Shown here: piece by piece, positions 13,739 through 59,590 of the stretch | Layout: each line of letters starts with the position of its first letter | Position numbering within the stretch: position 1 is the stretch's first letter | NCBI GenBank assembly: GCA_035516155.1 | Contig: DATJAP010000001.1 | Span: forward strand, 120,239 to 184,238 | Source: Nitrospirota bacterium | GTDB taxonomy: Bacteria; Nitrospirota; UBA9217 | DNA length: 64,000 nt | Direction: 5' to 3' | Made by a program: the position numbers and the translations under genes | The notes under the pieces: generated by a model | Databases searched by the model: none | Told to the model about the DNA's origin: nothing | Seen by the model: the letters and a program-made list of their open reading frames with translations, nothing else

Positions 13739-14350
13739 GACTGCACTCCTCCTTCTCTGAGATGGTGATTTAGTCCGCGTCCGCATGTTTCATAACAATA
13801 CTTTTCCTCGACAAAGCAATGTCGCCGGAAAGCATTTCATCGAGAAGCACCCAACTTTATCACGTCACTGCGGGATGTTTCCTCATTTCTTACTCCTTTT
13901 TTAGCATAGCACAGTTTCTCTCCGTCGTTGTGCATCCAGCGAGTGATGCAACTACATTTACGGACGCGAGACCGAAGAGGCAACCTGTCAAGTAATCTTC
14001 GATCCTGGGCCGCGCGAGACCGGTAGACAGTACAATTCCCAAGCCGACAGCCGTTTACAAGATCCGTTCGGTAGGCATACAGTCGTGCATGTTGCGGCAT
14101 GAAATCCACAGGCACATATCTGCTTGGTCAAGCCTTTTCAAGTGAAAACGGTGGCTCGTTCCGGCTATCCATTGTCTTCCCCTATATAATTGCAGAATCG
14201 CCGGAAAAACAATACAAAAACAATACTCAAAAACAATACTCTTTCTTGACGTCGCCGTTTATTTTTTGTATATTGACACAACGGCAATGTGAACATAAAA
14301 GCGATTCTGCTGTCTATCATAAGTCATTTCGGAATTTTGGTCTAAAATGT

Positions 14351-30172: not shown

Positions 30173-30616
30173 GACCTTTTTTCTAGGTTTTCAATTAACT
30201 TTCCTTGTAATCTCTCATTACGAATGGAAGTATGGTCGCGACAATGAAATCGGAGTCGATTTGTATTTTGGACCTCCCCTGCAGTATTTGTTTTTCTATA
30301 ATAAATATTTATCCACCGTCCTTTCAGGATTCATTTCGGCCTTTTCTTTTCCGTCAACATCTATATGGCGAAACTATCACGGATTCTGGAGAGCGAATAA
30401 TTGGGAAACATTCTGGTGATTGCGTAATTTGATATTTGACGATTGTTTCATCTTCTCGAAACTGCAGGCTCACAGATGATCCCCGAGGAACCCCTGGTTT
30501 GATTTATGCGAAGAAATCCTCTTGTGACGAATAGGGCGCTGCCGGACATCGTTTGAGTTGCATTTCTTTGCAACAAGTCATGTTGCACTCTGTATCCGCC
30601 GAATGCCCTAACGATA

Positions 30617-30706
30617 CCCTTTTGATGATATCCTTTTGCCTTGACACGCCCTTTTTTGACACACCCTTTTGATGACATTGACATAGGGTTGTATCAGGCA
30701 TATATT
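30617..30706 (+). promoter_or_regulatory. promoter cassette copy 1: CCCTTTTGA-type direct repeats plus TTGACAT-17 nt-TATATT
   Basis: The -35 box is at 30678-30683 and the -10 box at 30701-30706. It shares TTTGCCTTGACA and ATCAGGCATATATTC with copy 2. The units CCCTTTTGATGA (twice), CCTTTTGCC and CCCTTTTTTGACA lie upstream. Confidence 0.5.
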
Positions 30707-30802
30707 CATTCCGGATATTGTGAATAGTGCTGCATACAGAAGGAATGCGGCCAGCGATAATTTTAACTGTACAAAATCCCGAGTCCCCAACATATTCATG
30801 GT

Positions 30803-32286: not shown

Positions 32287-32655
32287 ATGACCAGGATTTT
32301 TGTGCGGTAGCATCTGATAAAATCGTAGCTCAACATTCTCTTGCTATTGCCATTAGAGACACGCTCCCTGTTTCCCCTGGACACGTACTGATCACACCGA
32401 AGCCCCATACCGCATCGATTTTTGAGGCAATAGGGACGAAGTCGCTGCTTATGGAACTCCTTGCAGAATGCGAAAATCACCATGCTTACGGAACAGGCTC
32501 CGATGGTTTCAATATCGGCACCAACGAGGATCTGGCAGCAGGGCAAACCATCCTCCATCTGTATCCATCTGATACGGGGATGTGCCGCCGGAAACCCACG
32601 CAGCGGTATCAGGCTGATTCATTGCGGATTTGGCATCCCATTGAAATCCCGTTGA
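32287..32655 (+). pseudogene. HIT-family hydrolase gene with two frameshifts
   Basis: The reading is MTRIF / CAVASDKIVAQHSLAIAIRDTLPVSPGHVLITPKPH...GFNIGTNEDLAAGQTILHL / IHLIRG...NPRSGIRLI across three frames. There is a -1 shift at the T5 run (32297-32301) and 2 nt are missing inside the HxHxH codons (32559-32563). Confidence 0.75.
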
Positions 32656-32739
32656 AATCCCGTTGAAAAGGACATCATTTTTACTTTGCCTTGACATCCC
32701 GTTGAAATCGTTGACATCTCCCTGCATCAGGCATATATT
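32636..32739 (+). promoter_or_regulatory. promoter cassette copy 2: 11-nt tandem repeats TCCC(A/G)TTGAAA plus TTGACAT-17 nt-TATATT
   Basis: Repeat units lie at 32636, 32647 and 32658 (contiguous) and at 32697. The -35 box is at 32711-32716 and the -10 box at 32734-32739, 118 nt upstream of the GGDEF gene. Confidence 0.55.
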
Positions 32740-32856
32740 CGTGACTAACGGTGTCAAGATCCTTGTTCGGGGCTTGGATAACATGCAATTTAAAATGCTT
32801 GGATAAGTCAACTTATTCGTTCGATAAGATTTCTTCAGACCGGTAGGGGGGCATTC

Positions 32857-33762
32857 ATGGATACAGAAATGATCGTCGTTCTGCTTATCGAAGATAATCA
32901 CGACGATGCCCTACTCATTCATCGTTATTTGTCCACCGCAAAGAAGGTTTTATATCAGGTCCATCATGTTGACGAACTCCGTAAAGGGCTGGAATACCTG
33001 AATAGCGGGAGTGTTGATGTGGTGCTACTGGACCTCGGCCTGCCGGACGCCCATGGCCTCAGCGCTTTTGAAAAGGTACATGCTCTATCACCCAATGTCC
33101 CCATAATAGTTCTGACTGGTCATGATGATGACGATTTGGCTATGGAAGCCGTTCACAAAGGCGCACAGGACTATCTCGTAAAAGGACAAATCGCCGGTAG
33201 TCTACTGCAGCGCTCTATCCGCTATGCGATAGAGCGCAAAAAGGCGGCCGAGGAGTTGAAGCGGCTCAACGAGCTATTAGAGCGTCAGGCAACCACCGAC
33301 CCGCTAACGGGCATCTTAAACCGGTTGAAGTTCAACAATACCCTGAACTCCGAGATCCAGCGGTCGAAACGGTACGCTATTCCGCTCTCCCTGATCATGT
33401 TCGACATCGACCATTTCAAAAATATCAACGATTCCTATGGCCATCATGTGGGCGATAGGGTTCTGTATGAAATCGTTGGACTGGTTAAGGAGAATATCAG
33501 AGTTCATGACTTCTTCGCACGGTGGGGCGGCGAGGAGTTCATGCTCTTGGCGACTAACACCGAGCAGGATAATGCTCGATTACTCGCGGAAAATCTGCGC
33601 TTCATGATTGGACGGCATCATATCCAGGGAGTCGGGAGAGTAACGTGCAGCTTCGGTGTGGCACAGCTCATCAACGATACTGAAGATCAACTCACCCAGC
33701 GGGTGGACCGCGCATTATATCAGGCAAAGGCGAACGGGCGGGACCGGGTAGAAATGGCCTAA
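32857..33762 (+). CDS. response regulator receiver fused to a GGDEF diguanylate cyclase
   Basis: Receiver domain (VLLIEDNHDD..., DVVLLDLGLPD). GGEEF active site (RWGGEEF) with an RxxD I-site (RVHD) five residues upstream. Confidence 0.95.
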   Translation: MDTEMIVVLLIEDNHDDALLIHRYLSTAKKVLYQVHHVDELRKGLEYLNSGSVDVVLLDLGLPDAHGLSAFEKVHALSPNVPIIVLTGHDDDDLAMEAVHKGAQDYLVKGQIAGSLLQRSIRYAIERKKAAEELKRLNELLERQATTDPLTGILNRLKFNNTLNSEIQRSKRYAIPLSLIMFDIDHFKNINDSYGHHVGDRVLYEIVGLVKENIRVHDFFARWGGEEFMLLATNTEQDNARLLAENLRFMIGRHHIQGVGRVTCSFGVAQLINDTEDQLTQRVDRALYQAKANGRDRVEMA

Positions 33763-37558: not shown

Positions 37559-37619
37559 TTTCGCTTCTAAATCATTTCGCTTCTAAATCGTTGACATCGC
37601 ATTGGATATAGCATATATA
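37559..37619 (+). promoter_or_regulatory. promoter cassette copy 3: 16-nt tandem repeat TTTCGCTTCTAAATC(A/G) x2 plus TTGACAT-17 nt-TATATA
   Basis: The repeats span 37559-37590. The -35 box is at 37591-37596 and the -10 box at 37614-37619. It shares AAATCGTTGACATC with copy 2. Confidence 0.5.
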
Positions 37620-39719: not shown

Positions 39720-39897
39720 ATTGTGATGAAGAACGAAGTAGCAGAAAGTCCAGCAGGTGACCGCAGGATCTGCCGTATTCGGCATGAAGTGTCAAATCTC
39801 GGTTGATCACCTGTTTTCGCGATTTTTTCCTGACGTTGTAATAGTTTAAATGCGTTGCAACACTTCAACTTTCAATCCGAATTTGTTACGCCTAATT

Positions 39898-43696: not shown

Positions 43697-44709
43697 GAGG
43701 GTTCCTGAATTTTTTACATTTTATGAAAAAGGCGCATAATATATTGATAATAATAGCTTTTTAATACGGGTTTATGTGAATTTTATAGCCTTTTTGCTCC
43801 TTGAAGACTCGCCTGCGAGCAGCAAGTCGCTCATACTGAAAGTGTCAGAGAACCTCGAAATAGCTTCACGTCGCATCGAGACCAATATCCGGGTAGGGCG
43901 GCTCTGAAGAAGGTCGACAGCGAGTTCCGCTCATCATTTTTCGTGCCTGTGTACGAGAATATGCAATAAGTTTTCTACTTATTGTTGATTCGTGATGTTC
44001 AGCCGGACTTCGTGAAGGACCTTTTTGCACAGCATGATGCATTACCAGGGAGAGTTCATGGGAAACAGGCTCACGATGTTGATGGAAAAAATAAATGAAC
44101 GGGAAAAGAACTCAGCCGCGAGATCCAGAAAAAAGAAGAGGCATACTACTAGAAAGATATTCGGCAAGAAAGTGACGTTCGAGGCGTTGATAAAACACGA
44201 ACAAAAAGCGCAACCGTCCCCCCTCAGCCGGTGGCCCCGGACGGTCACCATACCATGGGCATCTTATCGCTCACTATCAACTGGAAGAACCTGCTCCCAG
44301 GCATGAATATCATTCTGCTCCATTTTGCAACGCCTCGGAAAATGACGGGCAGCTTTGGTGTGTCTTCTCACAGTGGAAAGGATATCTGGCATTCCTGACT
44401 ATTGAAAATACTTCTGACCGGGGGTGATTGTGCGTGGAGACGAGATAGACATAATTTTTGAAGAGGTGTTGATGTGCAGTTGAAGCATACGGTGCGGACT
44501 CCTTCCTCTATCTCACAAAATTCTCATTCTTGGCAACTCATCAATATTCAATTTGAATTCGTTAGTGCATAGCCTTAAATCCATTCGAAAAAATTGACAA
44601 ATCTTAATATCTGTGCTTGTATTTAAGTAGTTTTCGATAAAGCCAAGCTCTTTTAAGAGGTGATAAAAAGGGTTAACCACACAATCTTCCATGGAAATTA
44701 GGAGGGCTA

Positions 44710-46005: not shown

Positions 46006-46422
46006 CATCACTGCACCCGCGAGAACTGCCCATGTCGGGGAGCAATTTTCATTCACCCTTGTCACAATATTGACATTCCACGCTTGTGGTTAGGAAATAG
46101 ACATATTGTCTGACGAGGAGTAGAATTGCCGTCGAATCATGTGATGCGGACTTCTTCCTAGCGCAGTTGAGGTTTTCCATTCTTTGTAACTCATAATCTT
46201 TCAACCCGAAATCTGTAACGCCTACCCATACCGTCATTCGATGCCATTATTCAATCTTGACATATGTGTGATGTAGCGCTATCTTTTTAAATAATTCCTA
46301 CCCCTGCATCAGCTCTGAGGCAAAATGTCACAATCCAGTGCATTCGATCGCGGTTTAATCCCGATGCGTATCGGCATTCATCGCTCAACATATCAAGTTC
46401 AACAACAACGAGGAGGGCAATC

Positions 46423-59141: not shown

Positions 59142-59590
59142 AGTGTTTGTTAGCGACAAGACCCGGCTTGAGGCAGATGCCGCACCGTACAACTTATCCG
59201 CTAAACGTTGATGCAGGTTTCAAGTATTCTGCAGCCTTTTCCATGAAGCGTTAGTACATGCAAGGAGGTGCGCCTCGCAGAGATCCTAATTCTGATTGAG
59301 GTGAAGATCTGTTGTAACGTGCAGTGCGTCCTACCTTCCTGAAGTTTTTGAAGTTCGATTCTTTGCAATATTCAATGTTGCATCCAGTAATTAGTAATCC
59401 CCTCGGCTACCAGTCTTCTAACATTTCTCTAATATACTTCCAAAGCCCGGATTTGCCATTCATAGCAATCATACCTAAATGAAATGATATACTTATACTA
59501 TAATGCTGTTTAGATATTAATGCCAGGTTGAACGCAAACGCGATGAAAGTTAAAGATATTCCGTGTCCATGCTACAAGAGATACAACACC

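Follow-up and report, generated by a model that had tools for sequence, protein, structure and literature searches.

The DNA analysed here, called the window in the following, is a stretch of 64,000 nucleotides that corresponds to positions 120239-184238 of contig C1 in an assembly of 3.07 Mb and 44 contigs. Between a frameshifted HIT-like gene and a receiver-GGDEF gene it contains a short tandem array that runs into a promoter. We call this site copy 2, and two related sites in the window copies 1 and 3. The features are the following, all on the forward (+) strand:

30616-30706, +: copy 1, same promoter class; a 16-nt unit, an insertion sequence (IS) end stump, two further units, -35 at 30678 and -10 at 30701
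32287-32655, +: frameshifted HIT-like gene; its last codons and stop reach into units 1 and 2
32636-32668, +: three contiguous 11-nt units (TCCCATTGAAA, TCCCGTTGAAA, TCCCGTTGAAA), read here as additional proximal-box copies that lie beyond the IS stump as seen from the promoter
32669-32696, +: right-end stump of an IS1202/ISNCY-family (ISTde1-type) element, AGGACATCATTTTTACTTTGCCTTGACA, 28 nt, ending in the IS terminal ...TTGACA
32697-32710, +: promoter-proximal unit plus TCG, the 14 nt from the IS terminus to the -35, in the position of a right-hand target-site duplication
32711-32716, +: -35 hexamer TTGACA, consensus
32717-32733, +: spacer of 17 nt, ending in the class-specific block ATCAGGCA (32726-32733)
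32734-32742, +: -10 hexamer TATATT (32734-39) and the conserved CGT
32744-32748, +: predicted transcription start, placed by the class-conserved A 7-9 nt past the -10
32857-33762, +: receiver-GGDEF gene with Response_reg and GGDEF domains; 5' leader of about 110 nt
37559-37619, +: copy 3; two exact-register 16-nt units (TTTCGCTTCTAAATCA/G) adjoining the -35 (37591-96), with the -10 TATATA at 37614-19

All four units of the array are exact matches to TCCC(A/G)TTGAAA, as the preliminary description had stated: unit 1 is TCCCATTGAAA at 32636-46, while TCCCGTTGAAA is found at 32647-57, 32658-68 and 32697-707. By chance about 0.06 exact matches to this degenerate 11-mer are expected per 64 kb, and within the 64-kb window exact units occur at this locus only. 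The contiguity of the first three units and their exact 11-nt period are borne out by the coordinates and by TRF (period 11, 3.1 copies, 95% matching, 32635-32668). The fourth unit was described as abutting the -35, which is not the case, as TCG (32708-10) lies in between. Read from 32636 the order is TCCCATTGAAA TCCCGTTGAAA TCCCGTTGAAA, AGGACATCATTTTTACTTTGCCTTGACA, TCCCGTTGAAA TCG, TTGACA, the 17-nt spacer ending in ATCAGGCA, and TATATT CGT. The stop codon of the HIT frame (32653-55) lies inside unit 2, and the repeats supply at most about the last six codons of that frame. Using a query that is short and partly out of frame, we found no HIT orthologues in 30 genomes of the family.

The promoter, TTGACA-17-TATATT, scores 11/12 and is, together with copy 1, the top promoter-like site in the 17.5 kb between 29.5 and 47 kb of the window. 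It has near-consensus hexamers, a 17-nt spacer and a co-oriented gene that starts 117 nt downstream, and we predict it to be a strong promoter of the sigma-70 type. Both the consensus TTGACAT-17-TATATT promoter and its place upstream of a receiver-GGDEF gene had been noted before and hold, as Response_reg and GGDEF domains are found in the product of 32857-33762. This response regulator has GGDEF as its output and contains no DNA-binding domain. Its orthologues in two species (L030, L031) are 87-88% identical. Homology with these orthologous loci begins only about 20 nt before the ATG (window 32837-32856), and the copy 2 cassette was not found at either of them. The GGDEF gene gained its present promoter region in the lineage of this genome, its whole leader and promoter region having been exchanged.

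Copy 2 belongs to a class of promoters. The class core, TTGACAT-N10-ATCAGGCATATATTCGT, is present in about 12-14 copies in this genome, and the related pattern TTGACA-N14-GCATATA occurs 12 times genome-wide. An nhmmer profile built from these sites gives 11 matches above 32 bits, then the 37.6-kb copy at 24 bits and then noise; copy 2 is the best match (39.6 bits). The recurrence of the core inside the window, reported earlier, is confirmed, with TTTGCCTTGACA and ATCAGGCATATATTC at 30635-30707 and AAATCGTTGACATC at 37585-37598. It had also been proposed to search the whole genome for the shared strings: with about 14 copies, and conservation across the genus, the core is not unique to the window. 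Outside this genome, TTGACA-N10-12-CAGGCATATA is present in 13 of the 14 further genus members and in 4 of the 10 other genera of the family. The 16 genomes from other families of the phylum have no match, and a reversed-pattern control gives zero in all genomes.

To obtain a consensus, 84 unique promoters from this genome and its relatives were anchored on the -35. Several positions outside the search pattern are conserved: a proximal box acAtacCCatTCGAnaTcG immediately upstream, T-g-a-A-T before CAGGCA, C-g-T past the -10, and an A-rich position at the expected start. The class box directly upstream of the -35 is CCCATTCGA. Copy 2 carries a CCCATTCGA-like proximal box, TTGACAT, ATCAGGCA before the -10, and TATATTCGT, and the 17 nt upstream of its -35 (ACATCCCGTTGAAATCG) match 11 of 12 conserved positions. 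By this alignment, the 11-nt unit is the copy 2 promoter's own version of the proximal box.

In the same genome, the tRNA promoters resemble TTGACA-17-TATAAT and have neither the box nor the CAGGCA block; both are therefore specific to the class and not general properties of housekeeping promoters. Conservation of the box throughout the class makes a function of its own probable, and extra copies could influence expression or be selected. The existence of a conserved class with both a box and a spacer block points to a factor, or a special promoter grade, in this lineage. The genes downstream of class promoters are unrelated to each other. Among them are, by Pfam, the receiver-GGDEF gene and one that is O-methyltransferase-like; others we take, by eye, to encode MurJ, an ABC ATPase, a small β-barrel-like protein, a substrate-binding protein, a 939-aa PHP-ATPase and a 1910-aa CheB/CheR kinase. 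An UP element is an A+T-rich tract at -40 to -60 that is contacted by the alpha subunit of RNA polymerase. In many class members AAAATA is found at about -55, and the proximal box itself is C-rich.

The sequence that separates units 3 and 4 has its counterpart elsewhere in the genome. Two tandem copies of the string GGACATTT(T/C)(C/T)ACTTTG(C/G)CTTGACA are found at contig ends and at a few internal sites of the genome, and at C35:1-1411, outside the window, a complete element that encodes a 419-aa transposase has them as its right end. This transposase matches NF033594 (NCBIfam ISNCY) with E=1.7e-120, above the cut-off, and Pfam recognises HTH_28/23 and, weakly, rve_3 (integrase core). The element is 1411-1412 bp long, has TGT...ACA termini with inverted terminal repeats (5'-TGTAATGGCAAAATGA...ACTTTGCCTTGACA-3') and two subterminal sites at each end, and in 9 complete copies it is flanked by target duplications of 15, 16 or 17 bp. 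Its length, TGT ends and 15-17-bp repeats are the features that define the ISTde1 subgroup of the IS1202 family, formerly the 'IS1202 group' of ISNCY (Siguier et al., 10.1101/2022.12.17.520857; Harmer and Hall, PMC10132070). Members of this subgroup are alike in a size of about 1.4 kb, an HTH and DDE transposase, TGT ends, repeated subterminal sites and 15-17-bp target duplications, and they have been reported in 'Nitrospira' among many phyla (10.1101/2022.12.17.520857; PMC10132070).

In copy 2, positions 32674-32696 are identical to a variant of the right-end stump in 22 of 23 nt, where no such match is expected by chance, and BLAST with the intact element (C35:1-1411) aligns 32676-32696 at 95% (20/21 up to the IS terminus). 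The string TTTGCCTTGACA, common to copies 1 and 2, is the terminal 12 nt of the IS; the stump in copy 1 is 12-15 nt long (TTTGCCTTGACA, 30635-46). By these alignments, 32669-32696 derives from the right end of an ISTde1-type element of which the last 23-28 nt or so remain. The stump has a repeat unit on both sides, as a target-site duplication would have.

Among the complete IS copies in relative G011, the right-hand duplication directly adjoins a TTGNNN-17-TAnnnT promoter in 9 of 10. In the genus as a whole 31 distinct right-end flanks were collected; a promoter stands at 14-17 nt in about 25 of them, compared with 0.26% of random genome positions. At 30 additional transposase loci in the family's other genera the same geometry is seen in about 18 flanks, including four tRNA promoters and several class promoters; five of these loci are tandem IS pairs, in which a right end is followed by 16 nt and a left end. 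The orientation of the IS relative to the -35 is always the same. Promoter-directed insertion by an IS1202-family element is well documented here, with dozens of independent insertions in many genera of one family.

In the literature, target specificity is reported only for the ISAba32 subgroup, at 5 bp from XerCD/dif-like sites, and the other subgroups are stated not to share this targeting (10.1101/2022.12.17.520857; PMC10132070). We found no report of promoter targeting by IS1202-family elements in the literature searched. Compared with the described ISTde1 members, the element here is distinguished by a position 16-17 bp before -35 hexamers and by its single orientation, and the window has only a stump of 23-28 nt.

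Sites of the IS were recorded at the contig ends C39, C33, C10, C1 (3' end), C34, C43 and C35 (3' end), and at loci L178, L179, L215-L221 and L231-L260. At L020 163-1233 (G009) an IS110-type transposase ORF, recognised by eye, lies in or beside an ISNCY element upstream of a class promoter, which suggests nested insertion sequences. An IS110 element of the bridge-RNA type was considered as the element responsible and set aside, as the IS110-like ORF in L020 appears, by eye, to belong to a second element within or beside the ISNCY copy. A circle-junction promoter (TTGACA-16-TGTAAT) was also rejected: the left-end hexamer is without the A that is critical at position 2.

Over the relatives and loci examined the element is found in a series of states: intact IS, internally deleted IS, stump, and bare tandem duplication. 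At L178 and L179 an intact IS is flanked by a 17- or 16-bp duplication, with an additional older copy on the left. L179 has in addition an older right-end stump and a partial unit further to the left at the same promoter, so this promoter has been hit at least twice. A 264-bp internally deleted derivative, consisting of the left end and the right end, with a 16-bp duplication is found in G002 (L181), while only internal IS fragments are kept in G001 (L183). At C16:81562 of the present genome the order is AACCAATCGATATTC, a 20-nt stump, AACCAATCGATATTC and the -35. Copy 2 has the same layout, that is unit(s), stump, unit and -35, and copy 1 also has a stump. At the end of the series, bare 16-nt duplications with an offset of 0 are found in copy 3, where no IS remnant is left, and at C1:192096, L141 and L156.

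Beside intact IS copies the older left-hand copies are truncated to 11-14 nt (C1 end, C10, L179). As the duplication is 16-17 bp, the shorter units of these arrays suggest a trimming of older target copies. The intact IS left end at C1:254957-255000 is flanked by four units of 10-12 nt (AACCCCTGTCA), and the one at C10:142-171 by two units of 14 nt (CCGTTCACAAAAAT). Within the window, positions 14205-14241 hold three copies of AAAAACAATAC(TC) with a period of 13; TTTC and a TTGACG-17-TATATT promoter come next. Together, unit and linker make 17 nt, the geometry of an IS target duplication, and there is no stump.

Multiplication of the proximal box is not limited to copy 2. Several other class members carry two to four copies of their own box, in tandem or nearly so, at periods of 10-18 nt. 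In an ungapped test, a duplication ending 0-3 nt from the -35 was found in 12 of 88 class promoters, against 10 of 1760 shuffled sequences. Each of the four best duplications (94% identity), copy 3 among them, measures exactly 16 nt and has an offset of 0. In the whole genome, 15 of 61 tandem arrays with periods of 10-18 adjoin a promoter-like site, compared with 1.9% of random positions, and unit plus linker is 16 nt in most of the promoter-adjoining arrays. Many promoter-adjacent arrays have periods of 12-14 and not 16. The number of units also differs between orthologous-looking promoters, with two at C27:17826 of the present genome and four at L152 of G011.

We consider it probable that the repeats of copy 2 are multiplied target-site copies, the scars of a promoter-seeking IS in front of a strong lineage-specific promoter, and not a docking array built for a regulator. 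The site would then consist of three layers. First, a sigma-70-type promoter of the class would drive the receiver-GGDEF gene, with the consensus acAtacCCatTCGAnaTcG, TTGACAT, N10, ATCAGGCA, TATATT, CGT and a start about 7 nt later. Second, an ISTde1-type IS of 1.41 kb would once have inserted here and duplicated a target adjoining the -35, leaving only its right-end stump; this stump would account for the upstream TTGACA and for the 'TTTGCC' string common to copy 1. Third, TCCCGTTGAAA would be both the proximal box and the IS target, with one copy between the stump and the -35 and the others beyond the stump. The two further 11-nt copies may come from earlier cycles of insertion and loss that left truncated left-hand copies, or from slippage.

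Three observations do not fit this reading directly. Many of the promoter-adjacent arrays have, as noted, periods of 12-14 in place of 16. The period of copy 2 is 11 nt and the distance from the stump to the -35 is 14 nt, compared with 15-17 nt in intact IS copies, so trimming of the left copy upon loss, or later slippage, is needed. Further, copy-out-paste-in elements do not excise, and we know of no mechanism by which this IS family would be lost while leaving both target copies.

The same difference in length is what an explanation by slippage or unequal exchange alone can build on. In that case a promoter-proximal hotspot would have produced the array, and the IS would have entered it later, adding at most one copy. 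The 11-nt period differs from the 15-17 nt of IS duplications, and intact IS copies do lie beside older arrays of shorter period (10-12 nt in four units at the C1 end, 14 nt at C10). However, slippage alone does not predict the about 13-fold enrichment of short-period arrays at promoters, nor that the arrays adjoin the -35 with unit plus linker of 16 nt in most cases and that the best-kept duplications are exactly 16 nt with offset 0. We therefore regard slippage alone as unlikely.

Alternatively, the units could be binding sites of a transcription factor, which might be an OmpR/PhoB-type response regulator or some other activator or repressor, multiplied because more sites alter regulation, with the IS stump incidental. 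This agrees with three direct repeats at a period of exactly 11 nt, or one helical turn, within the 10-11 bp typical of OmpR/PhoB-type sites, and with the conservation of the proximal box in 84 promoters, which something probably reads. The TTGAAA hexamer in the unit also resembles OmpR/PhoP-type half sites. In the preliminary description the array was compared with OmpR/PhoB-type activator sites, a comparison that is not supported: the -35 is consensus and begins 3 nt past the last unit, neither replaced nor overlapped, and the word is not common to a regulon, as other promoters of the class repeat their own words with periods of 10-18 nt. Further, the array is split by the IS-end stump, the neighbouring regulator has no DNA-binding domain and no gene for a DNA-binding regulator adjoins the site. 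The variation in unit number between orthologous-looking promoters (C27:17826 and L152) also speaks against binding sites, and taken together we judge this explanation improbable. Iteron-like elements, another earlier suggestion, have no replication context here, the neighbours being a HIT pseudogene and the GGDEF gene.

That the whole cassette of about 100-200 nt, repeats and promoter together, moves or spreads as a promoter module and was copied to its place before the GGDEF gene is very improbable, for although homologous promoters stand upstream of unrelated genes, an upstream module of about 200 nt has at least 35 matches in the genome, clustered at C1:150-197 kb, and homology with the GGDEF loci of two species starts only about 20 nt before the ATG, the module has no terminal repeats or duplications around it, its copies are only about 50-60% alike and conserved in blocks, the repeats differ between copies and copy 2 has only the promoter-proximal part. 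The earlier idea that the cassette was inserted or is mobile is supported in that mobile DNA is involved, in the form of the IS stump, but what is present is not one mobile unit; it is better described as a host promoter with the scar of a promoter-targeting IS.

Starting from this description of copy 2 as a scarred host promoter, a broader proposal can be made, in which our confidence stays somewhat below even. The ISTde1-type IS1202-family element may land on sigma-70 promoters in general, 16-17 bp upstream of the -35 and in one orientation, favouring the strongest ones (tRNA promoters and the present class). The signal it recognises may be the -35 itself or RNA polymerase bound to the promoter, and repeated insertion and loss would build arrays of promoter-proximal units of 11-16 nt. 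If true, this is a previously undescribed, transposon-driven remodelling of the regions upstream of promoters, which would explain about a quarter of the short-period tandem repeats in this genome. Already the reading of copy 2 as a scar makes a dated record of transposon visits out of what looks like a regulatory array, and it calls for caution in motif-based prediction of regulons, as direct repeats beside a -35 can be target-site scars. The targeting raises the question of how a DDE transposase reads a promoter and, if real, would provide a natural tool to place DNA at a fixed distance from promoters.

Three known systems resemble the site in part. Putative mobile or reused promoters (Nijveen, Matus-Garcia and van Passel; PMC3575422) are very similar promoters before non-homologous genes, within or between related genomes; here, in contrast, the similarity is block-wise (box, -35, spacer block, -10) and does not indicate a recent copy, and the recurrent flanking strings are accounted for by an IS end. 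Pho-box and other OmpR-family sites are likewise direct repeats with an 11-bp period just upstream of a promoter, but here the -35 is consensus, no regulon shares the word, promoters differ in their period and the array is split by an IS stump. The heptad repeats (TTTTGAT) of Vibrio cholerae ctxAB are tandem short repeats upstream of the -35 whose number varies between strains; they are documented as regulator-binding sites (10.1101/2021.05.14.444153), whereas the origin here appears to be a transposon target duplication.

The upstream module deserves a separate description. It is an intergenic, block-conserved sequence of about 200 nt with the layout CTTCCTG, N8, GTTTCCATTCTTTGCAAC, GTTTCAACCTGAATTCGTTAAC, CTACCC, AAAATACCCATTCGA and promoter. 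In the window it is found at 30524-30721, 39823-39888, 44490-44602, 46144-46247 and 59333-59399, with at least 30 more sites in the genome. Of the at least 35 matches in total, 11 lie at C1:150-197 kb, and the module is almost always co-oriented with the flanking genes. Many class promoters are located at its right end, copy 2 keeping only the promoter-proximal part, while some module copies have no promoter half; the copy at 39823-39888 precedes the groEL terminator.

Several identities for the module were tried and rejected. An RNA element is not indicated, as Rfam gives no match for 28-40 kb or for the window as a whole (E<=1) and RNAalifold gives no consensus structure on either strand of the module. 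In the block GTTTCCATTCTTTGCA, a sigma-54 promoter would lack the GG of its -24 element (by eye), and a divergent small ORF ('MET...') on the reverse strand has reading frames that are not conserved (by eye). The module is not recognisable as a stump of the same IS: nhmmer against the IS ends gives E=0.4-0.8, which is not significant, and the extant IS ends from 30 loci are unlike it. Terminal inverted repeats CTTCCTG...CAGGAA surround only a subset of the copies and do not appear in the 84-promoter consensus. Finally, a subfamily of the module, GACTTTTTGAATTATTGCAYTTTTCATTCGGAATCTGTTAAC, is found at L152, L157, L163, L164 and L130 (G011, G010) and at C27:17826, with a similarity within genomes above the average of the family, and this hints that modules may have been duplicated within genomes.
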